From positions 1 to 64,000 of the IMG/VR virus record IMGVR_UViG_3300029288_000005: 64,000 nucleotides of DNA; one strand, written 5' to 3'. The notes beneath the pieces are model-generated. The model was not told where the DNA came from. It was given only the letters and a program-made list of their open reading frames with translations, and did not search any database. This document shows positions 37,619-62,594 of this stretch, in pieces. Made by a program: the position numbers and the translations under genes. The stretch's first letter is position 1; each line of letters starts with the position of its first letter. The stretch comes from a virus. Taxonomy: Duplodnaviria; Caudoviricetes.

Positions 37619-37957
37619 ATGACATTGATTTACGGTTATAAAGGCAGAGGTATTACGAAAGACATTGTAATACTTGATTCGAATGGAGACACAGTTACTC
37701 CTGGAGCAAATGACCTTGTAAGAGTTTCAATAGGCAGGGTTGAAGAAACTATGTTATTTACAGTTACCAGCGGAACAGTCTCAGTCAATGGGAGTTCAAT
37801 TACGAAGGGGGCAACTAACAGACTGCGGATTGATGCTTCTGATTTGGAGGAATTGCATCCCGGTACTTATACACTATTCGTCGATTATTTCGACAATGCA
37901 GATACACAAGAATGGAAGACAGTTGATCGCCAGGTATTTGTTCTGGAAGGTGGGTAA
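37619..37957 (+). CDS. hypothetical beta-rich (Ig-like) virion protein
   Basis: 112 aa, beta-strand pattern, L.PGTY motif. Confidence 0.55.
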   Translation: MTLIYGYKGRGITKDIVILDSNGDTVTPGANDLVRVSIGRVEETMLFTVTSGTVSVNGSSITKGATNRLRIDASDLEELHPGTYTLFVDYFDNADTQEWKTVDRQVFVLEGG

Positions 37958-37959
37958 AG

Positions 37960-38505
37960 ATGAAAAAACAAACACTTATCACTGTACTAAAAGAAACAGC
38001 AGAAACTTTGAGGGGAATTAAGTTTAATCCTTACCACGACTCAGAAGGCAGGTTCTCTACTGGAGGCTCAGGTGGTCCTAAACTTGCTCCTGATACAGGT
38101 GGTGGTACAGGTGGAGGGGGTAAGTTGGGTGGATCCCCGGGAGATAAGGAGAGCTACAATGACAGAATTGAGGGTACACAGAAAGAAGCAGATAGGGAAG
38201 TAAAGAGGGCGGAAAAAGTAGTGGCTACAGTGAAAGCTGCTTTGAGCAAGTTAGAAGCAAAAACATCTAAAAAACAGGTTGCTACACTAAAGGCAAAGCA
38301 CGAAGAATGTGTTAGTAAAATATCAGAATTGAAGAAACAAAAAGAAGCAACTATGAAGCGGATAGAAGCGTTAAAAGCACAGTTAAAGAAATCAGTTCAG
38401 AAAGAACTAAATAAAGAAATACTCACACTGAAGGACATAATCAATAAGTTCAGAGTTGTTACGAAAGAACTCTATACATTGATGGACGAGGTATCAAAAC
38501 TATGA
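37960..38505 (+). CDS. leader-cassette protein 1: conserved leader + coiled-coil payload
   Basis: MKKQTLITVLKETAETLRGIKFNPYHDSEGRF...GGG then Lys-rich coiled coil. Confidence 0.8.
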   Translation: MKKQTLITVLKETAETLRGIKFNPYHDSEGRFSTGGSGGPKLAPDTGGGTGGGGKLGGSPGDKESYNDRIEGTQKEADREVKRAEKVVATVKAALSKLEAKTSKKQVATLKAKHEECVSKISELKKQKEATMKRIEALKAQLKKSVQKELNKEILTLKDIINKFRVVTKELYTLMDEVSKL

Positions 38506-39299: not shown

Positions 39300-40002
39300 A
39301 ATAAGATTTGGTATTGTTTTGACGTATAAGTGCAACATGGCTTGCAAGGGCTGTAATAGGTTCTTGGATGTAAGGCCATGGGAAGACTCTGATATTACGT
39401 TGGATGGATTGGTTGAGGGATATAATAGGGTACAGGCAACTGGATTGGTTATCCACAAGTGCCGGGTCTCGGGAGGGGAGCCTCTGCTACATCCCAGATT
39501 TGTTGATTGCATGACTATTATACAATCAATGTGGAACCAGAACTATGGTGGGCGTACTTGTGTATTTACAAATGGAAAACTCAACAGACCAGAGCCAGCG
39601 GGATGGCGTTACAATGTGTCAACCAGTGATGGGAAAAGTTACTACTTCCACCCTCCTATGATATCGCCGTATGATCTTGGTATGGAACCACTACAAGGTA
39701 TGACAATAGCTTGTAGAAGGCAGTTGGGGTGTGGGAGATTGTTTGATGCCTTTGGTTTCTCTTTCTGCGTGTTTGCTGGAGCCATTGGTAGATTGTTGGG
39801 AGTAGATCCTTACAGTCCCACACCAGTTGTAGAAGGCATATACGATATCTGTAAGCACTGCGTTTTCTCTCAGGGAATTAAGAAGGCGTTTGTGCTGTTT
39901 GATGCAGCAAACAATGGGGAAATAGAGTATCCCACAAAGTCTTACCAGTCGGCACTGGAGAAAAAGCAAAATTTTCAGTTAAAGAGGTTTTTTGAAAGAT
40001 GA
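39289..40002 (+). CDS. radical SAM protein
   Basis: CNMACKGC, SGGEPLLHP, FTNG, C-terminal Cys cluster. Confidence 0.85.
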   Translation: MPVEIRFGIVLTYKCNMACKGCNRFLDVRPWEDSDITLDGLVEGYNRVQATGLVIHKCRVSGGEPLLHPRFVDCMTIIQSMWNQNYGGRTCVFTNGKLNRPEPAGWRYNVSTSDGKSYYFHPPMISPYDLGMEPLQGMTIACRRQLGCGRLFDAFGFSFCVFAGAIGRLLGVDPYSPTPVVEGIYDICKHCVFSQGIKKAFVLFDAANNGEIEYPTKSYQSALEKKQNFQLKRFFER

Positions 40003-40822
40003 AAAAACAAACACTCATTACTGTACTCAAAGAAACAGCAGAAACTTTAAGAGGAATAAAGTTTAATCCTTACCATGACTCCCTAGGACGTTTTGGAACT
40101 GGTGGAGGTGGTCCTAAGTTGGCTCCTGATACAGGAGGAGGTACTGGAGGTACACGTTCAAATATAGTTGAATTGGAGCAAAAACAAATATCAGATGAAC
40201 TTGAAGATCAAACTGATGAATGGGAGGAAATGCTTTTTGAAGATGCAAGAAAGGCCAATTTGAAACATGGTGTTCCTACTATGGCGGAATCGATAAATAA
40301 ATGGGTGGGTATAGTAGAGCTTTTAGAAAACATATAGCCGAAGAGAATTTTGACGACGAAATAGGGGAGGAGGCAAAGCTATTTATGAAAGCCCTGAAGT
40401 TGGCCCCTGACTATAAAGGTGAGGTGTATAGAGGATTGAAAGCTGATTCTAACCAAGCAAACACTATATTGAAAGCCATAAAGTCTAAAGCTGAGTATTG
40501 GCAGGAGAAAGCTCCTATGTCTTGCTCTTTGGATCCTGAAATTGCAATAAAGTTTGCTGGTGCTCGCAAGGATAAACCGTCTGAGTATGAAGTTCTGCTC
40601 AAAATCAAAACTAAATCAGGCAAGTACCTGGGTTCTTTGAATGAAGGGGGGGAGGAAGAAATCATCGCTATGCCCAAAAAGTACAAAATCAAATCCGCGC
40701 TTAGGCAACAGGAGGCCAATATACATGTTAGATCGGTTTATGGGGACGAAGAGGGAATTGAAAAACCTATTTTGAAGACAAAAGTAACTTTTGATTACAT
40801 TATTGAACTGGAGGAAGTCTAA
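39999..40822 (+). CDS. leader-cassette protein 2: conserved leader + ADP-ribosyltransferase, split by a -1 frameshift at ~40303-40309
   Basis: ORF 39999..40337 carries the leader; ORF 40301..40822 has YRGL, SCS, EEE (R-S-E); one extra G joins them (INKWGGYSRAFRK). Confidence 0.72.
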
Positions 40823-40965
40823 TGTCAAAGCAAAAACACAGAATGGACTTGACCATGGAGGAGGCCCTAGATACCGTAGAGCTACTTGACGAGGATGGCA
40901 ACGTCATTGACTTGGGCACTGCCCAAGAGAAGACAGAGGAAACTAAGAAAACAGATGAAGAGTAA
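40822..40965 (+). CDS. 47-aa acidic protein, candidate immunity protein for the upstream ART
   Basis: Manual: MSKQKHRMDLTMEEALDTVELLDEDGNVIDLGTAQEKTEETKKTDEE*; TAATG coupling with GGAGG RBS. Confidence 0.6.
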   Translation: MSKQKHRMDLTMEEALDTVELLDEDGNVIDLGTAQEKTEETKKTDEE

Positions 40966-41009
40966 TTGTGATGAAAAACAAACGCTCAGTGTTAGCAAAC
41001 TAACAAAGG

Positions 41010-41357
41010 ATGAGAATGAGCATATTAGAAAACCTTCCACATAAATGTTCTGCCTATCTGAAGACCTGTACACAAGGATCTATGGGCGGGGGAAAGGATG
41101 CTCTATCTTTGGTCTTCTCGGATCGAGACTGTTGGAGACAGCCTGCTGGGGACAGTGAACAGGAGTTGGCGTTAAAAAAGGGAATAGATATTACACACAA
41201 GGTGTATTTTGTTGAAAATCCATCGTTGGACAACCGACATGTACTGGTATTTTCCGATGGGACGTACGATGTAACAAGCAGACCATTTCCTGATGCTACC
41301 CTAGGTCTTAGTATTGTGTGGAAGGTAATGGTCAACCACAACTCTGCAAAGGATTGA
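41010..41357 (+). CDS. head closure/stopper protein
   Basis: ..GG......C..QP....E......ITHKVYF...YDV pattern. Confidence 0.7.
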   Translation: MRMSILENLPHKCSAYLKTCTQGSMGGGKDALSLVFSDRDCWRQPAGDSEQELALKKGIDITHKVYFVENPSLDNRHVLVFSDGTYDVTSRPFPDATLGLSIVWKVMVNHNSAKD

Positions 41358-41362
41358 TTATT

Positions 41363-41716
41363 ATGAAAGTTGTCTGTAAAAATCTTGAAGCTTTTAAGAA
41401 GAACCTCACTAGTGCAAGAGATCTTATAGAAGACTCAATCTTTAACTCTACTGTATGGGTAGATACTAGTGAGGTTCTGCAAGGAGAGTTTGGGCAATCT
41501 GTCAAATACCTTATAATCTTACAAATGGGGGCAATAAAGATCTTCCCAAACGGAGGAGAGGCTTTGGTAGAATGTGGAATAGAGTGTGGTTATGACTTCA
41601 GAGACGCCACGCAAGATTATGAGGGAACTGAGAAGGCAGAAGACCTGAAGAAAGAGCTAACTGTATTCTGTGAAGAACAAGGCTTTACGTTGAAGCCTGG
41701 TATGTTGTATGAGTAA
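41363..41716 (+). CDS. hypothetical protein
   Basis: ORF in structural operon. Confidence 0.6.
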   Translation: MKVVCKNLEAFKKNLTSARDLIEDSIFNSTVWVDTSEVLQGEFGQSVKYLIILQMGAIKIFPNGGEALVECGIECGYDFRDATQDYEGTEKAEDLKKELTVFCEEQGFTLKPGMLYE

Positions 41717-41736
41717 CCTAAAAGGAGAACCGAAAG

Positions 41737-42213
41737 ATGTTAGAACATCAAGACAAGAAACAAGCCACCACTCATTTTATTTCTGAGTTCAAAAAAAAGA
41801 CTGAGAAGTGTGATGGTTTTTTAGGTTTCGTAGTTGTGCGAAACCAAGACAAGTTGGAGTTGTGTGTTCGAACAACTCACAACTTTATGCGAAACGACTT
41901 CGTTGCAGTGATTGCACTTCTTGCTGAGAATTTGCAATCTGAGTTGGTTGAGACTAGGGGCATTGGCATGGGTGTGCCCGGTGGGGAAACTCCACAGCCA
42001 CCCAAACCTCTACCTAGAGTAGATAGAGAAGAGCTTCTAAAGTCAATCTTTCCCACCCAACGTTTGCAGGAGAACGAGGCGCCTGGGTTCAACAAGAAAC
42101 CTTTTGATATCCACGAGGGACCAACAAGACTCCCTCAGCAGATTGACAATCCCTTTAACCAGCAGGAAGATAATACCCCTAAGCAAGAAGACAAACCGGG
42201 GGAAGTGCAATGA
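41737..42213 (+). CDS. hypothetical protein, Pro-rich C-terminus
   Basis: AAGGAG RBS. Confidence 0.6.
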   Translation: MLEHQDKKQATTHFISEFKKKTEKCDGFLGFVVVRNQDKLELCVRTTHNFMRNDFVAVIALLAENLQSELVETRGIGMGVPGGETPQPPKPLPRVDREELLKSIFPTQRLQENEAPGFNKKPFDIHEGPTRLPQQIDNPFNQQEDNTPKQEDKPGEVQ

Positions 42214-42587
42214 AGTGGTTGGAATATCTAGGAATACGTTTCAAGTTGCATAGAATCTCTAAAGCTCGACAGATGGCAGAAGCCTGGCAGAAAGAAGCAA
42301 AGTGTCTGCTAAGAAACTTAGAGAAAAAAGAAGAATTGTTGTTACTAGAGTCCTCAACTCTCAAACGTTTGGTTGAAGACGTAGAGAACAACATTCGAGA
42401 AATTAAGTCGTTAAGTGCCAAGTATGAAGTGTCTCTGGAAGCGTTGAGGAATGAGAATAAGGTAATGGCTGAGGTGACCATACCAGCTCTAACTTCAGCG
42501 TGTCAACTGGGACTTGAGCGATGGAATGCGGAGACAGCAATACAAGTGAGAAGGCAAATACTGCCCGAGTCAAAAAGTAAGGAGTAG
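42210..42587 (+). CDS. coiled-coil hypothetical protein
   Basis: ATGA overlap, heptad pattern. Confidence 0.55.
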   Translation: MKWLEYLGIRFKLHRISKARQMAEAWQKEAKCLLRNLEKKEELLLLESSTLKRLVEDVENNIREIKSLSAKYEVSLEALRNENKVMAEVTIPALTSACQLGLERWNAETAIQVRRQILPESKSKE

Positions 42588-44167
42588 TGTGTATGAACGC
42601 TCTAGTAGAATCACTCAACACAAGAAAAGCTTTTATTTCAACTGTAAGAAATCAAGCAATTGAAATGAAGGCTTCTGGTATTACACTAGATATTGGTGGG
42701 GAGGGTACCCTCAGTTCACTGAACGAGTGGCAAAGCAGATCAAAGTACTCCCAACGATATGCTCTGTGTCGAGGCATTGTCTACTCAGCGGTAAATGCAC
42801 TCGCTTCCGAAGGGGCTTCACAGCCCATAGAAGTAAAGCAACACACTAAGAAAAAGAAGCTACGTGGTACGAAGGCTGCTAAAGATGAGTTGGAAGTGTT
42901 GACTGAGCATGTACTAATAGACTGCTTTGAACGACCCAACCCTATACAGAACAAGTGGCAGTTCTTGTATTCGTTTATTGCAAATCTGGCACTCACTGGT
43001 TGGGCGTATATCATAGGAGAGGTAGACGAAGAGGACAAACCAGTCTTCTACAGCATCCCCACAACGTGGATAACACCAGACCATACAAAAGGACCGTTCG
43101 AATCTTTCAAACTACAAAATCCACACAAGCCCGGATCTGCTTCAGAGATGTTGGATAAGCGGAACGTGGGATTTGCTTACTTGCCTGATCCGTCGGACAT
43201 TATGGGAGCACTTTCTCCTGCTTCTACGCAGTTGCCCGCTATCCAGTCCAACGATAACATCTGGCAGAGTAGGTTGCAGTTTTTTAAGAACGGTATTTTT
43301 CCGGGATCTTTGGTTACAGTTGGATCTAATCCACACCCGGGAGTTCCTGCTGGTATACGACCAAGGTTAACAGGTGTGCAGAGGCAACAAGTATACAGCA
43401 TGGTTAAGAAGTTAATGTCTGGAATTGCAAACTACGGGGATCCAGCAATACTTGATGGGTTGATTGAAAAGATTGAACCGTTATCGATGAATAGCAAGGA
43501 GATGGGTTGGGAGAAGTCAGAACCAGCAACCAAGGCAGCAATCCTCAGTGCTTTTTGTGTACATCCCTACATATTGGGAGAAGCAGTGAGCGTGGGAGGT
43601 TATGCTCAAGTAGCAAACATAGAGAAGAGGTTCTATAAGAGGGTCAATACATACTTGTCGATGTTTGATACATTGATGACTTGGTTTGTGCAAGATCTAC
43701 TAGAGGACACTTCGTTAAAAGTGTGTGTGAAAGAATGTAACGCTAGTGACCCCACGTTGGATTGGGCTAACTGGAAGTATGCTCGAAGTAATGGTGATAT
43801 TACACAGAATGAACTTCGAGAAAAGTTGGGCTTGCCCCCTGATGAAGATGATAATCAGAGCGCCATTGCACCACAACTATTAACACCAATCGTACAACTG
43901 TTGGCACAGAAGGCATCTGGTGCTATTACTGTTGAGCAGATAGAGAATATATTGGTGGGTCTGGGTCTACCAACCGACCTAGCCAAGAAGGTGGCTGGAA
44001 AGGACATGCCTCCTCAACAACCTGTAGAAGGTATGGAAAAACCTGGGAAATCCCCAGAAGAGAAACCTACTGAAACAGAGTTACTCAAAGAAGCAGTAAA
44101 TCAGTTTAAGAGTTTGCCCGATAAAGAGATGGGTCGGTTAAAGTCTTTGTTGGAGATAATTGCATAG
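42587..44167 (+). CDS. portal protein (HK97 family)
   Basis: VYSAV..LA, RPNP.Q, L.LTG.AY, GALSP, FFKNG.FPG, I..AF.V.P.ILG, T.NE.RE.LGLPP. Confidence 0.9.
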   Translation: MCMNALVESLNTRKAFISTVRNQAIEMKASGITLDIGGEGTLSSLNEWQSRSKYSQRYALCRGIVYSAVNALASEGASQPIEVKQHTKKKKLRGTKAAKDELEVLTEHVLIDCFERPNPIQNKWQFLYSFIANLALTGWAYIIGEVDEEDKPVFYSIPTTWITPDHTKGPFESFKLQNPHKPGSASEMLDKRNVGFAYLPDPSDIMGALSPASTQLPAIQSNDNIWQSRLQFFKNGIFPGSLVTVGSNPHPGVPAGIRPRLTGVQRQQVYSMVKKLMSGIANYGDPAILDGLIEKIEPLSMNSKEMGWEKSEPATKAAILSAFCVHPYILGEAVSVGGYAQVANIEKRFYKRVNTYLSMFDTLMTWFVQDLLEDTSLKVCVKECNASDPTLDWANWKYARSNGDITQNELREKLGLPPDEDDNQSAIAPQLLTPIVQLLAQKASGAITVEQIENILVGLGLPTDLAKKVAGKDMPPQQPVEGMEKPGKSPEEKPTETELLKEAVNQFKSLPDKEMGRLKSLLEIIA

Positions 44168-45385
44168 ATGAAAAAACAAACACTTATCACTGTACTCAAA
44201 GAAACAGCAGAAACTTTGAGGGGAATAAAGTTCAACCCTTACCACGACTCAGAAGGTAGATTCTCTACAGGCTCGGGATCTGGTGCCCACATGGCTCCTG
44301 ATACAGGAGGAGGCACTGGTGGTGGAAGTAAGTTGGAAGAAAGAAAATTCTCTGATGAACATGTTAATAAACTTGCAAAAGCATGGAAGAATCTGAGCAA
44401 GAAAAAGTCAGAGGCTGAATTGGCTAAGTTGGGGGAGGCTGATAGATTAGAGTTAGCAAAAAAAATCTCATGGGATTTTCATAGGTACAAACCAGAAAGA
44501 AAAGAAGAGGTGTGGAAAACTCTAGGTGATTTAGAAAAGAGTGAGATTATAAAAACACAATCTGCTTTTTGGAATGATCTTAGTGATGCAAAAAAATCAG
44601 AGCTACTGGGTGTAATGAACAATAAAGAAAAAGAGGAGTTGATAAGTGGTGGAAAGCGTGTTAAAGAGGAGATGGAGAAGTTTAATCAAAAGATTCAAAA
44701 TAAGGTGGATGTAATACATTCTCAGGAAGCACAACGAATTAAAGAATCAGAAGATAAATTGATGCCTAGTAAATCAGATTTACTAGATAGACAGAAGGCG
44801 AGGGTTCGAATAGATCCTGAAGAAGGCAGTTTTGATACGTTGGCGGTTTTGCAGAAAAGAAATTACACTAAGAATGTTAGTGATGCTGCTAAAAGTGGAT
44901 TTACTGAATATTCAAGGAGTGAACAAAGTAGAAAAATAAATGGTGCTCTGCGAAAGGGAAAATCTGTAGAAGAAATAAGTCCTGAGATTGCAGAGTTGCA
45001 AAAAGCATGTAAATCCCCACTAGAATCACCCATGATTGTTTATCGAGGAATTGATTCTAAGTTTGCGAGTGAAAATTTTAAGAAAAACACTGTGTATGAA
45101 GCCAAAGGATTTGTCTCAACATCAATGAATCTGGGACAAGCTGTTCGATTTGGAATGGAAGGACTAGCTAAAGAACCTGTAGGAAGCCAAAAAGCTGTTG
45201 CAGTCATGGAAATAAAAGCAAAGAGTGGGTTTTTGGCTGCTCCGGGAGCAGGTGTGCACTCTGGGGAATATGAGGTTTTACAGGCACATAATACACAATA
45301 CAAGTTAATAGGCATTGATAATAGTGTTCCTTTACACAGGGGAAGCAGTGAAAATTTAGTAGTTTATATGTTCGAGGAGGTATAA
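44168..45385 (+). CDS. leader-cassette protein 3: conserved leader + VIP2/Alt-like ADP-ribosyltransferase
   Basis: Leader; then Y.....INGALR, VYRG, GFVSTS, EYEVL. Confidence 0.88.
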   Translation: MKKQTLITVLKETAETLRGIKFNPYHDSEGRFSTGSGSGAHMAPDTGGGTGGGSKLEERKFSDEHVNKLAKAWKNLSKKKSEAELAKLGEADRLELAKKISWDFHRYKPERKEEVWKTLGDLEKSEIIKTQSAFWNDLSDAKKSELLGVMNNKEKEELISGGKRVKEEMEKFNQKIQNKVDVIHSQEAQRIKESEDKLMPSKSDLLDRQKARVRIDPEEGSFDTLAVLQKRNYTKNVSDAAKSGFTEYSRSEQSRKINGALRKGKSVEEISPEIAELQKACKSPLESPMIVYRGIDSKFASENFKKNTVYEAKGFVSTSMNLGQAVRFGMEGLAKEPVGSQKAVAVMEIKAKSGFLAAPGAGVHSGEYEVLQAHNTQYKLIGIDNSVPLHRGSSENLVVYMFEEV

Positions 45386-45387
45386 AG

Positions 45388-45525
45388 ATGAAAAAAGACG
45401 AGAAAAAACCAGAGAATAACGAAGACAGGAAAGTGCGAGCAGAGAGGTTCTACGAAGACGAACCTGATGCGTTTGTTATAGTGAAGCCAAAGAAACAAGA
45501 TGACAAGCAAAGAAACAAAAAGTAA
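45388..45525 (+). CDS. 45-aa protein, candidate immunity protein for the upstream ART
   Basis: Manual: MKKDEKKPENNEDRKVRAERFYEDEPDAFVIVKPKKQDDKQRNKK*; GAGGAGG RBS. Confidence 0.6.
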   Translation: MKKDEKKPENNEDRKVRAERFYEDEPDAFVIVKPKKQDDKQRNKK

Positions 45526-46537
45526 AATAGTTTCTACGTTAGTTGAAACTACTACTCTAGCATTGAAACTAAAGACCAACCTCCTGCAAAAACAGATACG
45601 CAGGAAGGTTACAGATAAGGTTCACAAGTTACAGGTTGCTAAGGTGGAGAACAAGCTAGCGAAAGCCCTAGAACCAGTGTTCAAACAAGAGCTGCTAAAG
45701 TCTGCTGATAGGTTACGGGAGATTGTACCACAAGAGAAAGCAAAAGCCAATCCCGTAGCAGAAGCCATAACAGCACAGGTTCTGTCCCATGACCAGGAAT
45801 TGAAGAATAAGGTAGTCGATGCTGCTGTTCCCATTCTGGCAGTAGAGATGCTAAAGTCCATGAAGATGGTATTTGTGGAGAATGGTAGAAAAGACATCAG
45901 AAACATCCAACAGAAGTTCAACCCCCATCATGACTCTCTAGGTCGTTTTGCTACTGGTTCAGGCTCAGGCGCCCACATGGCTCCTGATACCGGCGGTGGT
46001 ACGGGTGGAGGTTCCCTCTTGGTAGGATCCAGTCAAAGAAACAAAGACGAGCTGTATAAGGAATATCGGGAAGTTTATAAAGAGAAAAAGGGAACAGATC
46101 CTAAAAATAATGAAAATTTGGTAAAAATTGCAGGTGTGAAAATAGTTTGTCCTGGGAATATAAAAAGCACCGCAGAAAGAATGTTGGCCCATGTTATTGC
46201 AGACAGCAAAACTTTGATGGATGGGTTATCGGGAGTGACTGTAACTGTAAAAAACATGGGCCAGCTTTATGGCCAGAGCAAGGGAAACAATCTTTTTGTA
46301 GATGAGAAGGTGGTAAAGGAAAAGGGAGCTGGATTTGGAGCTTCAATTGTAAGGCATGAATTGGAGCATACTTTTCTTACAAGAAAAAAGGTACCATCAG
46401 GAAAACAAGAGCCCAGAGTACGTGCAGTAACAGGCATGTTTGCTGTTGCAAAGTATAGTAGTATGGCAAAAACAAATCCTGCTGATGCAGAAGGGTTTTT
46501 GGCAGCAGCAAAAGCTTCTGGAGTTAAGATAAGATGA
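45500..46537 (+). CDS. helical (MuF N-terminal-like) domain + internal FNPHHD motif + HExxH metallopeptidase-like payload (cassette 4)
   Basis: QK-FNPHHDSLGRF..APDTGGGTGGG at aa ~139-172; IVRHELEH. Confidence 0.72.
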   Translation: MTSKETKSKIVSTLVETTTLALKLKTNLLQKQIRRKVTDKVHKLQVAKVENKLAKALEPVFKQELLKSADRLREIVPQEKAKANPVAEAITAQVLSHDQELKNKVVDAAVPILAVEMLKSMKMVFVENGRKDIRNIQQKFNPHHDSLGRFATGSGSGAHMAPDTGGGTGGGSLLVGSSQRNKDELYKEYREVYKEKKGTDPKNNENLVKIAGVKIVCPGNIKSTAERMLAHVIADSKTLMDGLSGVTVTVKNMGQLYGQSKGNNLFVDEKVVKEKGAGFGASIVRHELEHTFLTRKKVPSGKQEPRVRAVTGMFAVAKYSSMAKTNPADAEGFLAAAKASGVKIR

Positions 46538-47388
46538 GTTATAGTTGGCCTTGTTTATTTGCAGATCTTGATAAAGATTCCATCGAGTTACCAAATGGAT
46601 GGAAGCCATTGAAACCGCTTGATAAAGAGGGCGGTTCTATGTATACAAGAGCAGAAGAAAATGAAAAACAAACACTACTAAAAGCACTCAAAGAAACAGC
46701 TGAAACTCTGAGAACTATCAAGTTCAATCCTTACCACGATTCTTTAGGTAGATTCGCTACAGGTGGGTCGGGAGGAGCTGGTAGGAACTTACAACTATCT
46801 CGTGATATATTGGAGCAAACACAGAAGGATCTTAGGGAACGGAGTTTTCTAGTAGATCGAGATGGAAAAGTTGTATCTGATGTTAGTATTGGGGAAAAAG
46901 AAGAGAACGTACTAGAGTCAGGGGTGGATAGACCATATACAGAGAGTAACAATACCGAGGGGGCGGACTTAAATCTGATACATACACATCCCATTCATAC
47001 TGATGAAGAAAACCCATATACGGGATTGGGTGTGGGGGATGTTCTGAGTCTCAAGAATTCTCCTGGTATAAACAGCATTACAGCCATTGATTTAGATGGT
47101 CGTGTTCATTCCATAACAAGGGCCAGTGATGATAAGGAGTTTTTGAAAAAGTACTGGCTTAGATCGGGGGAAATTGAATCGGATCTGCGGTCTAAGATAA
47201 TCGACGAATTTATTGAGAACAAGATAACAAAAGAAGAAGCCAATAGAAAGAAACGACTAATACCCAAAGATTTGATAAAGCAGCTTCTTAAAGAGGGTTT
47301 GTTATCAAAGGAAGAGGAATGGGATTTGTTGGATGGGAATAAATCTTACAGTCTGAAGTTTAATAACAGTGGAACAGTAAATGCCTAG
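46534..47388 (+). CDS. short N-terminal peptide fused to leader-cassette protein 5 with JAB/MPN-like payload
   Basis: EKQTLLKALKETAETLRTIKFNPYHDSLGRF; payload RERS...IHTHP......GD. Confidence 0.68.
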   Translation: MSYSWPCLFADLDKDSIELPNGWKPLKPLDKEGGSMYTRAEENEKQTLLKALKETAETLRTIKFNPYHDSLGRFATGGSGGAGRNLQLSRDILEQTQKDLRERSFLVDRDGKVVSDVSIGEKEENVLESGVDRPYTESNNTEGADLNLIHTHPIHTDEENPYTGLGVGDVLSLKNSPGINSITAIDLDGRVHSITRASDDKEFLKKYWLRSGEIESDLRSKIIDEFIENKITKEEANRKKRLIPKDLIKQLLKEGLLSKEEEWDLLDGNKSYSLKFNNSGTVNA

Positions 47389-48997
47389 TACAGCATCCGA
47401 GTGGTTGGCAAGTAACCCGAACCAAGTGGCAGAACTACGAGAAGTTCTGATTGCCAATGGTGTCTCTGTTGACTTTTTGACTGAGTATCCCGACTGGATG
47501 TTGGAAAACATAGCACAGCAGTTGACAGACACTTTCTCCCAAAGCTACTGGGACGACATCGAGAAGAGTTATGGAAACGACGTGAACGAGTTACTAAGAG
47601 CTGGTATTCGTAATGGAAAGTCAATGGGTGACATCGCTCAAGAGATGACCGACCTCAGCGACGAGTATGCAGAGTCCCGGGCCATGAACATAGCCCGTAC
47701 GGAATCAGGCCATGCACTGAACGGTGCCAGAAAAGCCTCTATGGATGAGATAGTAAATGATCCACAGCTAGTGGGCACATTACGGCCTACGTGGCAATCG
47801 GCCCTAGGAACCACCACCAGGGATTCGCACGCAATACTGGACGGTGTACCGGCTGATAAAGAGGGAATGTGGACACTGTCAGGCTACAAGATTCCATGGC
47901 CTGCTCATTATAGTCTTCCACCAGGTGAGCGTTGCAACTGTCAGTGCACCATAGTCATAGAGTATGGGTTGCAGGACCTAGAAGCTCGGGATATGATAGA
48001 GCAATACAATCAGCGAGTGGAAGAATATAATAAGGATGTAAGGTTAAGGGAGAAATTCAATCCTTACCACGACTCTCTAGGTAGATTTTCTACTGGTTCA
48101 GGCTCTGGTGCTCATATGGCCCCAGACACTGGTGGGGGTACTGGTGGAGGTTCGTCAGATGGTGGAAAGATGCAAGAGGTGACATATGATAAGGACAGCA
48201 AGAAATGGTTATTAGGTAATGGAAAAGAACTACCTGACAACGTGCCCAGAATACCTCCCGCATGGACTGGTGTACGGGTAAACACCAGCAAGAATGCGGA
48301 TCTGGTAGTAGTGGGTGTGGATGCCAAGGGAAGAAAACAGAGCATATACAGTGAAGCACATTGGACTAAGGCTGCGGAGGTTAAGTTTGCAAGGGTTAAT
48401 GAGTTGCGGTCCAAAGTCAAGAACATCGAAAAAGAAATCAAAGGGGACTTAAAAGTTCCTGAGCGTAAGGAACAAGCAGCCTGCTTGAGGTTGGTTCTGG
48501 AAACAGGTATTAGACCAGGCAGTGACTCAGATACGGGAGCCGCTAAAAAAGCATACGGGGCCACTACATTAGAAGGCAGACATGTAAAGGTGGTCAATGG
48601 TGAAGTTAGACTGCAGTTTGTTGGTAAGAAGGGTGTTGACATTGATATACCCGTAACAAACAAGGCGCTGGTGGCAGACCTGTTAAAGCGAAAGAAGAAG
48701 AGTGGTGATAGTGGTAAGTTATTTAACACAAGCAATAGAAAGCTGCTCCAATATACACACACTAAAGATGGTGGCTCTTTCAAAACAAAGGACTTCCGCA
48801 CTGCCAAAGCCACAACCATGGCCATTAAGTTGGTTAGTTCCATGTCCAAACCCAAAAACCCGAAAGAGTACAAAAAGTCGGTGAAAGAAGTAGCCACGGT
48901 TGTGTCACAGTCGTTGGGTAACACACCCACCATTGCACTACAATCGTACATACACTCAGCAGTGTTTACCAAGTGGCGTGCCTCAGCAGGAGTATAG
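47381..48997 (+). CDS. MuF (SPP1 gp7-like) head morphogenesis domain + FNPYHD motif + DNA topoisomerase IB (cassette 6)
   Basis: RA.NIARTE, W......R.SH..LDG, P....P..RCNCQC; then IPPAW, D.KGR.Q..Y, GIRPG, YGATTL, F.GKKG, KDFRT, LGNTP.IA..SYI. Confidence 0.9.
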   Translation: MPSTASEWLASNPNQVAELREVLIANGVSVDFLTEYPDWMLENIAQQLTDTFSQSYWDDIEKSYGNDVNELLRAGIRNGKSMGDIAQEMTDLSDEYAESRAMNIARTESGHALNGARKASMDEIVNDPQLVGTLRPTWQSALGTTTRDSHAILDGVPADKEGMWTLSGYKIPWPAHYSLPPGERCNCQCTIVIEYGLQDLEARDMIEQYNQRVEEYNKDVRLREKFNPYHDSLGRFSTGSGSGAHMAPDTGGGTGGGSSDGGKMQEVTYDKDSKKWLLGNGKELPDNVPRIPPAWTGVRVNTSKNADLVVVGVDAKGRKQSIYSEAHWTKAAEVKFARVNELRSKVKNIEKEIKGDLKVPERKEQAACLRLVLETGIRPGSDSDTGAAKKAYGATTLEGRHVKVVNGEVRLQFVGKKGVDIDIPVTNKALVADLLKRKKKSGDSGKLFNTSNRKLLQYTHTKDGGSFKTKDFRTAKATTMAIKLVSSMSKPKNPKEYKKSVKEVATVVSQSLGNTPTIALQSYIHSAVFTKWRASAGV

Positions 48998-49000
48998 ACT

Positions 49001-49177
49001 ATGGTAGAGATATTCGGAGACGACCAGGACGTCAACTTTGGTGGGGTTGACAAGCCCGCTGTTGATTGGAGAAGCAATAACCAAGACGACGGGGACCCTG
49101 ATGATGAGTTGTTGAGACCCACACCATTGGATGTGATAGCAATTCTAGGTTTTGATCCACTGGAACTGGAAGAATGA
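49001..49177 (+). CDS. 58-aa highly acidic protein, candidate inhibitor/partner of TopIB
   Basis: Manual: MVEIFGDDQDVNFGGVDKPAVDWRSNNQDDGDPDDELLRPTPLDVIAILGFDPLELEE*; AGGAG RBS. Confidence 0.65.
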   Translation: MVEIFGDDQDVNFGGVDKPAVDWRSNNQDDGDPDDELLRPTPLDVIAILGFDPLELEE

Positions 49178-49488
49178 TACACCCCGACATACAACAAGCA
49201 GTTTTAGAATGTAAAGGCAAGATGTCGCAGCAGGCAATATCTGCCAGGTTTCACATATCACGTCAAACCGTTAGGAGTATACTAAGACGTGGTTATGTAA
49301 AGTATCAACCACTTGGTTGTACTGAGTACGATATTGCTGAAAACAAAGAGTCAAAGGAATACACACTGAAAGCAGGATGGACGGGAGCAGTTGAACGTTG
49401 CCACAAGTGTGGTAGATTGGTACAGTTACCTTGCTTGGCGTGTAGGATTGAAGAAATGGCAAAAAGGAAACGCGGTGTGTTAGTATGA
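49174..49488 (+). CDS. HTH + Zn-finger DNA-binding protein
   Basis: MSQQAISARFHISRQTVRSIL; RCHKCG...PCLAC. Confidence 0.7.
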   Translation: MIHPDIQQAVLECKGKMSQQAISARFHISRQTVRSILRRGYVKYQPLGCTEYDIAENKESKEYTLKAGWTGAVERCHKCGRLVQLPCLACRIEEMAKRKRGVLV

Positions 49489-49671
49489 TAAGGGTGAAAA
49501 TAAGTGAGGACATCGCTGTACTACATGAAGGAAAGTGGAAGTGCCCAAACAAACGGTTGGAATGGTTGTTAAATGAGTTGACCATAGCAGGTGAGTCTCA
49601 GAAAAGTTGTTCCTCCCGGTTAGCAGAGTTGTTTGAAGGCGAGATTCTAAACACATAAGAAAGAAGATCAA

Positions 49672-61497: not shown

Positions 61498-61977
61498 GTG
61501 GTAGTAGCATCAGCAGACTTTCAGACAGCAATAGTAGAAGCCTGGAATGGTAGCGTGCTGAATGATGTCTTTGCTGCGCTAGGAGGAGAGACACCTTTGT
61601 TATGGGAAGGCATTGCTCCTCCGGGACAACCATTTCCTTACTGTGTAATGGAAGTTGCAGATAACAGTAGGGTTGCAAGGATGTCAGCTTCTTCGGGAAC
61701 CCGAGAAGTCAGGAATGTTACACACAAGTTTAGTGTACTGGCAAAAGAAGTTGTTGGAGATAGTCGAACAGCAAAAGAGATAGCAGTATATTTGGCGGAA
61801 GAAATAATGAAGGTTTTTGGTGGACACCCCACCCAAGCGCCATCAGAAATCACTTTGGACAATGGGAATCTTGTGACTGTTGACTTTGAAAATGACTTTG
61901 GGGTAAAAGTAGACGAACAGATTTACCAATGGGATATAAACTATATCTTCATGGTTGACGTCCCAGTAGCAGGGTAA
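61498..61977 (+). CDS. tail terminator protein
   Basis: AP.GQ.FPY.V motif; position before the tail tube. Confidence 0.7.
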   Translation: MVVASADFQTAIVEAWNGSVLNDVFAALGGETPLLWEGIAPPGQPFPYCVMEVADNSRVARMSASSGTREVRNVTHKFSVLAKEVVGDSRTAKEIAVYLAEEIMKVFGGHPTQAPSEITLDNGNLVTVDFENDFGVKVDEQIYQWDINYIFMVDVPVAG

Positions 61978-61979
61978 AA

Positions 61980-62594
61980 ATGAATATGAAACAAACACTT
62001 ATCACTGTCCTCAAAGAAACAGCAGAAACTTTGAGGGGAATAAAGTTCAACCCTTACCACGACTCCTCTGGTAGATTCTCTACAGGAGGCTCGGGTGGTC
62101 CTAAGTTAGCACCCGATACAGGGGGAGGCACTGGAGGTGGAGGAAAACCTGCAAAAAAACCACCCAAGTTGATGGATATTGATGAGGACACTGGTTTGGT
62201 GGTTAAGCCTTCCAGTTCACCTCCCAAGTTTAACGCACCAACTGAGAGGGGAAGAACCTTACAGAAAAGTAGCTACTATTCTTCTAAATCCGCTATGGAT
62301 TTAAGTTCAAAAACAAATAATAGTAGGGCGGTACAGTTATCAAACAAAGCTATGGAAGCCTCTACAAAAGCAGCTTCTTCTGGCAATAACCCCAAAATTG
62401 CCAGCAAATATCATAACAAGGCTGCTGAATTACATGAGCAAGCAGAGATGATACACGTGGAAGAGTATCCCGCAGCAAAGAATTCCAAGAAAAAACTGGC
62501 ACACGCAAAAGCTGAGTCCGCTCATAAAAAAGCGGCTGATCTACACAGACAAGCAGCAACTGCTTTGAGTAATACCATTGAGTACTTTGAATAA
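61980..62594 (+). CDS. leader-cassette protein 7: conserved leader + His-rich helical payload
   Basis: MKQTLITVLKETAETLRGIKFNPYHDSSGRF; H..AA.LH..A repeats. Confidence 0.8.
   Translation: MNMKQTLITVLKETAETLRGIKFNPYHDSSGRFSTGGSGGPKLAPDTGGGTGGGGKPAKKPPKLMDIDEDTGLVVKPSSSPPKFNAPTERGRTLQKSSYYSSKSAMDLSSKTNNSRAVQLSNKAMEASTKAASSGNNPKIASKYHNKAAELHEQAEMIHVEEYPAAKNSKKKLAHAKAESAHKKAADLHRQAATALSNTIEYFE

Follow-up and report, generated by a model that had tools for sequence, protein, structure and literature searches.

Does each enzymatic cargo of a phage head come with its own small immunity gene? The question is raised by IMG/VR virus record IMGVR_UViG_3300029288_000005, a complete genome of 93,023 bp with direct terminal repeats from an uncultured phage. 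Bases 1-64000 of this record (the window) were analyzed, and all genes in the window are on the + strand. A preliminary description had proposed that four tiny open reading frames (ORFs), located directly behind the cargo genes for two ADP-ribosyltransferases (ART-2 and ART-3), an HExxH peptidase and a type IB topoisomerase (TopIB), encode proteins that neutralize these cargoes during late expression. According to our analysis, the four cases differ. The ORF behind TopIB, ORF3, belongs to a conserved family of acidic proteins, its linkage to phage TopIB is real and deep, and ORF3 is probably the cognate partner of the enzyme. The partner reading is weakly supported for ORF1 behind ART-2 and unsupported for ORF2 behind ART-3, and the ORF reported behind the peptidase does not exist. 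The three ORFs and the topoisomerase gene are located as follows:

40822..40965, + strand: ORF1, candidate partner of ART-2 (47 aa, acidic, net charge -9; codon usage 0.376)
45388..45525, + strand: ORF2, clade-specific gene travelling with ART cassettes (45 aa, mixed charge, isoelectric point (pI) 9.3)
47381..48997, + strand: fusion of MuF, junction motif and type IB topoisomerase (PF04233, 1e-11; PF01028, 1e-19)
49001..49177, + strand: ORF3, TopIB-associated acidic protein (58 aa, net charge -14)

The first two homologues of ORF3, obtained by a word-based search (84% and 66% identity), each lie directly behind TopIB. An ORF3-like domain is also found behind TopIB in L007, a relative identified through its portal, and is fused there to the junction motif that connects the cargo modules of these phages. 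In the contexts fetched via protein matches to ORF3, TopIB is situated just upstream in all cases, one lineage having two intervening genes. Since these loci had been found through ORF3 itself, 80 viral loci of IMG/VR were collected by a TopIB profile alone, 75 of which include downstream DNA. An ORF3-like domain lies downstream of TopIB in 72 of the 75, within 120 nt of the TopIB stop codon in 62 loci, fused to the enzyme in one (L173) and further downstream in nine, while three loci have none. None of the TopIB-first loci carries the domain upstream of TopIB. Conservation of gene adjacency, which had been named earlier as a check of the proposed pairs, is strongly confirmed here by TopIB genes found independently of ORF3.

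The junctions between TopIB and ORF3 are mostly ATGA or short overlaps, and in P0062 and L173 the domain is fused to the C-terminus of TopIB. Among the matches listed, none of ~115 junction-motif loci without TopIB contains the domain, and it is absent from L088, a 93-kb relative with an unfused MuF and no TopIB. The TopIB part of the fusion protein is predicted by AlphaFold2 (AF2) with a pLDDT >90. Among 78 homologues Arg113, Lys151, Arg208 and Tyr258 are invariant and Asn249 is nearly so; these we take to be the catalytic residues of TopIB.

Two other accounts of the arrangement were rejected. The position of the domain behind TopIB is the same in loci with MuF upstream (12) and in loci with MuF downstream (6), which excludes a tie of the family to MuF instead of TopIB. 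The TopIB stop codon and the ORF3 start are in frame, which could indicate read-through; however, this is the case only in the window, L008 and L009, and 59 of 60 other adjacent pairs are in different frames.

A profile search with ORF3 against 1.84 billion representatives yielded 632 clusters at E≤1e-3 and 55 at E≤1e-10. Most members of the family are separate proteins of 50-100 aa, in some cases the domain begins a longer cargo protein, and in P0062 the domain order is MuF, TopIB, ORF3-like domain, junction, payload. The domain comprises ~55 aa with the consensus D[VI]HFGxV..DWR..DPDDExLxxTPxDV..LGFDPLE. An alignment of 24 sequences displays 13 invariant positions, including F, G, W, R, D, TP, V and LGFDP, and ORF3 has all 13. 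Neither ORF3 nor ORF1 or ORF2 gave a significant match in Pfam, NCBIfam, PHROGs or PADLOC; the best PHROGs match of ORF3 (phrog_16327, of unknown function) has an E-value of 0.067 and is not significant. A search of the ESM Atlas gave no lead, and a profile search of the Protein Data Bank returned no relative of ORF3 but only spurious GFDPL matches to light-harvesting proteins. In tblastn searches of cultured phages ORF3 was not found, and TopIB gave one distant match to a Bacteroides phage. A derivation of the GFDPLE end of ORF3 from a decayed junction motif was ruled out, as L007 has GFDPLE in addition to a true NPYHD motif.

For ORFs this short, the first doubt is whether they are genes at all. 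The preliminary description placed ORF1, ORF2 and ORF3 correctly, and all three are coding-like. The start codon of ORF1 overlaps the ART-2 stop codon (TAATG) and is preceded by GGAGGA, the ATG of ORF2 lies 2 nt past the TAA of ART-3 with GAGGAGG upstream, and that of ORF3 lies 3 nt past the TAG of TopIB with AGGAG upstream. Each thus begins 0-3 nt from the preceding stop codon, an arrangement that is not found behind the HExxH gene. At their other ends, the last 26 nt of ORF2 are shared with the next gene (45500) and the stop codon of ORF3 overlaps the next ATG (ATGA). Good ribosome-binding sites had been reported for all three, and a Shine-Dalgarno-like sequence does precede each of them; however, the sequences in front of ORF1 and ORF2 are also coding sequence, because all ARTs of these arrays end in ..EEV or ..EEI, and therefore encode the conserved ART C-terminus.

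This double use of the Shine-Dalgarno-like sequences, together with the shortness of the ORFs and the lack of a homologue of ORF1, is what could be expected of chance open frames in intergenic spacers. Such an origin is hardly credible in view of the codon usage, as the log-odds of the three ORFs (0.30-0.38) lie above those of every one of the window's 231 non-coding ORFs of comparable size. Tight stop/start coupling on both sides, homologues with invariant residues and low dN/dS values relative to the nearest homologue (0.16 for ORF3 versus L008, 0.06 for ORF2) likewise argue against it. For ORF2 and ORF3 the chance-frame reading is effectively refuted.

What, then, may ORF3 do? The earlier characterization of the protein as very acidic is borne out by a pI of 4.05, and its net charge of -14 is opposed by +25 for the TopIB domain (pI 10). 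The AF2 model of ORF3, calculated from 110 sequences, consists mostly of coil with two short helices, one of which, over DVIAILG, is confidently predicted; such a profile would be typical of a peptide that folds on binding a partner. ORF3 is the phage copy of a widespread acidic domain of ~55 aa, co-inherited and translationally coupled with phage TopIB. The largely disordered peptide with its short C-terminal helix may bind the very basic TopIB one-to-one and most likely masks the DNA-binding cleft, and the masked enzyme would neither cut nor recombine DNA, be it in the producing cell or in the filled head, before ejection sets it free. Binding of ORF3 to TopIB is very likely. Inhibition of the enzyme has roughly one chance in three, and a function as adaptor or chaperone is rated somewhat lower still. 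The explanation as a whole, with ORF3 as binder and mask of TopIB, ORF1 as partner of ART-2 and ORF2 as a clade gene, appears to us slightly more probable than its negation.

Several observations weigh against this explanation. Since the TopIB stop codon and the ORF3 start are in frame, the read-through product could be folded as a single chain (TAG read as Q, 78 rows), and in this AF2 pseudo-fusion the pLDDT exceeds 90 for TopIB but the ORF3 part is of low confidence. In 26 of 68 distinct copies the domain forms the N-terminus of the following cargo, often in front of a junction motif, which also fits a leader-like or adaptor role, and an inhibitor fused in cis, as in P0062 and L173, would need a release step. 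Among metagenome-assembled genomes (MAGs), in which copies were located by a DNA pattern search of genome contigs, 6 of 13 true matches are without TopIB. These adjoin tyrosine integrases, an MmeI enzyme, an MqsA-like helix-turn-helix (HTH) protein, an insertion sequence transposase or a Cas gene. The behavior of ORF2 and of several ARTs, described below, and the restriction of the ORF1 case to two genomes count against the explanation as well.

A domain that binds TopIB could also act as a positive adaptor or chaperone instead of an inhibitor. In one form it could tether TopIB and domain-fused cargo to the portal/MuF complex for packaging; in another it could link the enzyme, once ejected, with a DNA-processing factor of host or phage, in the way that acidic tails of single-stranded DNA-binding protein (SSB) recruit partners. 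Either form would accommodate the 38% of copies fused to the N-terminus of the next cargo, which include a MuF (P0047) and an ART (P0024), as well as the copies permanently fused to TopIB, and a mostly disordered peptide with a single short helix resembles a docking motif. However, stand-alone copies are the majority (42 of 68) and have nothing to tether, and extreme acidity opposite a DNA-binding enzyme of pI 10 has the look of a DNA-binding competitor. The adaptor reading is regarded as rather unlikely.

The N-terminal copies also bear on the proposal that ORF3 is the orphaned leader or propeptide of a lost downstream cassette, brought behind TopIB by recombination at the junction motif and without functional tie to the enzyme. 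In L007, L060 and L079 the domain indeed precedes junction motif and payload, as it does in 26 of 68 other copies, and leaders with ~85% DNA identity over ~100 nt recombine readily. Such an origin nevertheless appears improbable, as the domain is found behind TopIB in 72 of 75 loci whatever follows and never, among the matches listed, in the ~115 junction-bearing loci without TopIB. Moreover, 62% of the copies stand alone, some are fused to TopIB itself, and the 13 invariant residues reflect a constraint far above that of other leaders.

Returning to ORF3 as a mask of TopIB, a wider proposal can be formulated, which we consider speculative and rather unlikely: the ORF3-like domain would be a dedicated regulator, most likely a cleft-occupying inhibitor, of TopIB and tyrosine-recombinase-fold enzymes, with which phages silence virion-delivered TopIB until ejection. 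Tyrosine integrases share catalytic fold and chemistry with TopIB, and the MAG copies next to them would, if the proposal is true, extend the same principle to site-specific recombinases. ORF3 and its relatives would then constitute, to our knowledge, the first natural family of proteinaceous TopIB inhibitors in the prokaryotic world, and ORF3 would give access to the role of packaged topoisomerases during infection.

The MAG copies include some further arrangements. On contigs L156 (22-883) and L152 (6-698) a tyrosine integrase (PF00589) is closely followed by the ORF3-like domain, of which L152 has only half. In a Methylovirgula MAG (L148:6107-7411, - strand) an ORF3-like segment, ..VWFGDKEASELGKDWRN..DDEELEETPPDVIAMLGFDPRD.., is situated mid-way in a 434-aa protein. 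The gene of this protein lies between a gene on its upstream side, Cas3/HD-like by eye only, and a Cas_GSU0053 gene closely downstream. The segment has the appearance of an insertion into a CRISPR-Cas large-subunit-like protein.

The ART-2 cassette, at the end of which ORF1 is located, consists of two frames:

39999..40337, + strand: leader and junction of the ART-2 cassette; the translation has MKKQTLITVLKETAETLRGIKFNPYHDS..GRF, with a motif match at 40059, and its frame differs from that of the payload
40301..40822, + strand: ART-2 payload, ADP-ribosyltransferase-like, R-S-E type, assigned via its homologue in L088

ART-2 has no direct Pfam match, and its matches to the Vis ART (4xzj, E 0.026) and to phrog_16619 are weak. 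It is 29% identical to the ART of L088 (E 1e-10), which in turn matches PF03496 at 1e-15; as the similarity runs through this homologue, ART-2 is an ART by transitivity only. The payload is out of frame with its leader, the two frames overlapping by 37 nt, whereas L088 keeps an intact fused leader-ART of 253 aa. The split in the window could represent a pseudogene, a switch or a frameshift site.

No homologue of ORF1 was found among 5.8 billion proteins. In L088, however, the same slot behind the intact leader-ART is occupied by a tightly coupled acidic ORF of 54 aa without detectable similarity to ORF1 (E 16), and the gene that flanks the slot downstream is 83% identical in both genomes. At this site L240, L241 and L242 have neither the ART cassette nor a small ORF. 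Cassette and small ORF thus occur together in two genomes and are both absent in three, which lends weak support to the adjacency expected of a pair. Because they were gained, lost and diverged together, payload and small ORF behave as one exchangeable unit, a pattern that would fit the classical signature of a toxin-immunity cassette. ORF1 is probably an immunity-type partner specific to the ART-2 cassette.

A different picture emerges for ORF2, which follows the second ART gene:

44168..45385, + strand: leader, junction and ART-3 payload (PF03496, E 2.8e-11; motif match at 44228)

Homologues of ORF2 in L010, L088, L007 and L135 extend its occurrence to five lineages, which share the invariant core KVRxERFYE. 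ORF2 is certainly real and, judging from its substitution pattern, under strong purifying selection. It lies behind ART-3 in the window, behind ARTs 38% and 33% identical to ART-3 in L135 and L010, respectively, and behind a leader stub without payload in L007; in L088 it is found ahead of the ART, between a radical SAM gene and the leader. ORF2 is absent from G001, G002, G004 and G005; among the relatives that lack it, two are near-complete, and one of these two has an ART followed by a different ORF of 170 aa. The pairing of ORF2 with ART-3 as a cognate couple is therefore unsupported, as ORF2 is conserved (59-89% identity) while the ARTs beside it, only 32-38% identical to ART-3, are exchanged. 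This contradicts the co-variation of classical toxins and immunity proteins, and ORF2 does not appear to be a classical cognate immunity gene. In addition, ART cargoes often occur without a small downstream ORF, several being part of polyproteins or located directly before large genes. Examples are an 892-aa protein of L007 (N-module, ART, ART, TopIB), L009 and two of the three ARTs of L135.

The same observations bear on another reading, which takes ORF1 and ORF2 for ordinary small genes of the phage with a structural, regulatory or anti-defense function and no tie to the ARTs, and in which virion-delivered ARTs of this type, like T4 Alt, need no immunity protein. Its chances are a little short of even. 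Conservation of ORF2 beside exchanged ARTs, its place ahead of the ART in L088 and behind the payload-less stub in L007, the many ARTs in polyproteins or in front of large genes, and the detachment of ART-2 from its leader are all in line with it. On the other hand, ORF2 adjoins an ART-bearing gene in every lineage that has ORF2, its invariant core contains an arginine, and ORFs of the ORF1 type appear and disappear with the ART cassette. ORF2 is a clade-restricted protein that moves with ART cassettes; it may act on ARTs in general or have nothing to do with their activity. An arginine in acidic context had earlier been noticed in both ART partners as a possible substrate decoy. The respective strings, HRMD and ERFYED, are present, and the conserved Arg-Phe-Tyr core of ORF2 would be compatible with this idea.

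Two other interpretations of ORF2 were rejected: a frameshifted N-terminus of the next gene, as in L010 MuF follows without overlap, and a universal backbone gene, as ORF2 is absent from G001 and G002 and located elsewhere in L088. On JGI scaffold L012 (1493-2836) the portal stop codon is directly followed by the first 41 codons of ORF2, a run of N, leader-ART-3 and a complete ORF2. This order suggests that a variant lacking the ART-3 cassette exists in the population and that the assembler combined it with the cassette-bearing form.

Downstream of ORF2, two further cargo genes precede the MuF-TopIB fusion:

45500..46537, + strand: helical N-module, junction (NPHHD) and HExxH metallopeptidase-like payload, from the translation, with a weak match to Tox-MPTase3 (E 0.0099)
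46534..47388, + strand: JAB/MPN-like cargo gene, a continuous ORF of 284 aa

A peptide of ~42 aa had been reported behind the HExxH gene at 46534..46660, a length that is not divisible by three. The frame that starts with the ATG at 46534 is open to 47388 and is the JAB-like gene, of which 46534-46638 are the first 35 codons, misread as a separate peptide; a partner of the HExxH peptidase is nonexistent in the window. According to an alignment of five leaders, the leader ATG of the JAB cassette itself (46661) is shifted by 1 nt in a run of A, and because of this displacement the leader can be read only from upstream. The JAB payload has no support from Pfam or profile searches. In agreement with the preliminary description, no small ORF follows the JAB gene or the genes at 37960 and 61980. 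In two relatives the HExxH cargo is followed by a small ORF, of 78 aa with an ATGA overlap in L088 (6131-6367) and of 65 aa and Cys-rich in L132 (3783-3980). Judged by eye only, these are unlike each other and unlike the JAB extension of the window; they are candidate peptidase partners.

The genes described so far are part of what appears to be a portal/MuF head-cargo array, in which variable payloads would be attached to interchangeable N-terminal modules via a conserved KFNPYHD..GRF junction. Seven genes between 37.9 and 62.6 kb have in common the junction KFNPYHDSxGRF..GGG..APDTGGGTGGG. Three types of N-terminal module are found ahead of it, a 20-aa leader (MKKQTLITVLKETAETLRGIK), a helical N-module of ~155 aa (45500 gene) that is conserved in L088, L007, L012 and L135, and MuF (47381 gene). 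At 47381-48997 an N-terminal trafficking domain is accordingly combined with a variable C-terminal enzyme; in L007 another payload is fused to MuF, and in L088 MuF is unfused. Pfam matches in the region comprise the portal (42587-44167), ART-3, MuF and TopIB, and a radical SAM protein. The five leader/junction copies (37950-38050, 39989-40089, 44158-44258, 46650-46750 and 61970-62073) share ~85% DNA identity over ~100 nt and therefore lend themselves to the exchange of cassettes through homologous recombination.

The junction motif is widespread, with >116 IMG/VR contigs among the matches listed, and relatives carry variants such as GSGNFGHxGRPGEVGGS or HPRDxxGKF. Dialects in L009, L132, P0040, P0072, L171, L239 and others (NPYHDxxGRF, the two variants just mentioned and LQGRHNQxSHGRGGGG) are all Gly-rich with a His plus Arg/Lys-Phe or Arg-Pro. 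The payload at 37960-38505, previously classed as non-enzymatic, is matched in PHROGs by head scaffolding proteins and by the scaffold portions of maturation proteases (E 5e-5 to 1e-3) and may be a scaffold-like coiled coil. A megablast search of 40-50 kb against INPHARED phages gave no match. Directly behind ORF3 lies the following gene:

49174..49488, + strand: gene for an HTH protein (HTH Pfam matches; ATGA coupling to ORF3)

The order of ORF3 and HTH gene is the same in L008, and in L088, without TopIB and ORF3, the HTH gene directly follows MuF. At 49485-49658, two genes past ORF3, a 57-aa ORF has coding-like codon usage (0.21) and a conserved counterpart of 64 aa in L008; it is a further genuine gene too small for the usual cut-offs.

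Taken together, payload and small ORF are jointly inherited in 72 of 75 loci for TopIB and ORF3 and in one instance for ART-2 and ORF1, but not for ART-3 and ORF2. Neutralization of the cargo is in all cases what we infer for these partners, and a rule by which each enzymatic cargo would be paired with a tiny immunity gene of its own does not hold for the ARTs of these arrays. Small genes below annotation cut-offs are routinely missed, and one of them defines here a family of at least 632 sequence clusters that is unnamed in Pfam, NCBIfam and PHROGs and was not found in cultured phages. Its near-obligatory coupling to TopIB makes the role of a head-packaged topoisomerase at infection testable with a simple protein pair, and the same pair allows one to test by what means TopIB is kept from harming the producing cell and the genome in the head.

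Among known proteins that act on DNA-binding proteins, the C-terminal tails of SSB and T7 gp2.5, as well as Ocr and ArdA, are very acidic, bear aromatic residues and are largely unstructured or elongated. ORF3 resembles them in its acidity, its aromatic residues and its predicted lack of structure. However, no relation in sequence or fold to Ocr, ArdA or SSB tails was found, and ORF3 displays a specific set of conserved motifs instead of a generic acidic surface. With a prediction of mostly coil and no relation to solved structures, it differs from DNA mimics of the Ocr/ArdA type, and a net charge of -14 alone does not make it one of them. ORF1 and ORF2 are comparable to the Tre1-Tri1 system in that a small gene neighbors an ART, but, unlike in such toxin-immunity pairs, no co-variation with the ART is seen for ORF2. 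Tri1-type immunity proteins are larger than ORF1 and ORF2, and part of this class are ADP-ribosylhydrolases. T4 Alt is an ART that is packaged in the head and injected, and we know of no immunity protein for it.

The array resembles the polyvalent proteins (Iyer et al. 2017, PMC5512222), virion-delivered multi-domain arrays next to portal/MuF with ART, metallopeptidase and GNAT domains, of which the 892-aa polyprotein of L007 is an example in a relative. In that work, however, no TopIB effector or acidic domain is named, 'topoisomerase' occurring only in a reference title, and neither the repeated junction motif nor the TopIB-coupled small domain is described. Among the papers searched, none linked MuF, topoisomerase and a partner.

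The idea of immunity ORFs itself is not new. Small ORFs behind MuF toxins have been proposed as immunity genes (Jamet et al. 2017, PMC5576092), as 89.4% of 191 MuF-toxin genes are followed by an ORF of <150 aa, compared to 25.5% of short MuF genes. The window shares with these MuF polymorphic toxins (PMC5576092; Zhang et al. 2012, PMC3482391) the combination of MuF with a variable C-terminal enzyme, followed by a small domain-less ORF. In contrast to the known temperate prophages, the phage described here looks like a large phage with direct terminal repeats, and its payloads are also carried on other N-terminal modules. No topoisomerase payload is mentioned among the MuF toxins of Jamet et al. 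(PMC5576092). Moreover, TopIB has a partner that is not polymorphic but comes from a single conserved family, frequently in fusion with the following cargo or with TopIB itself, and it is this conserved, TopIB-coupled acidic family that is the new element.

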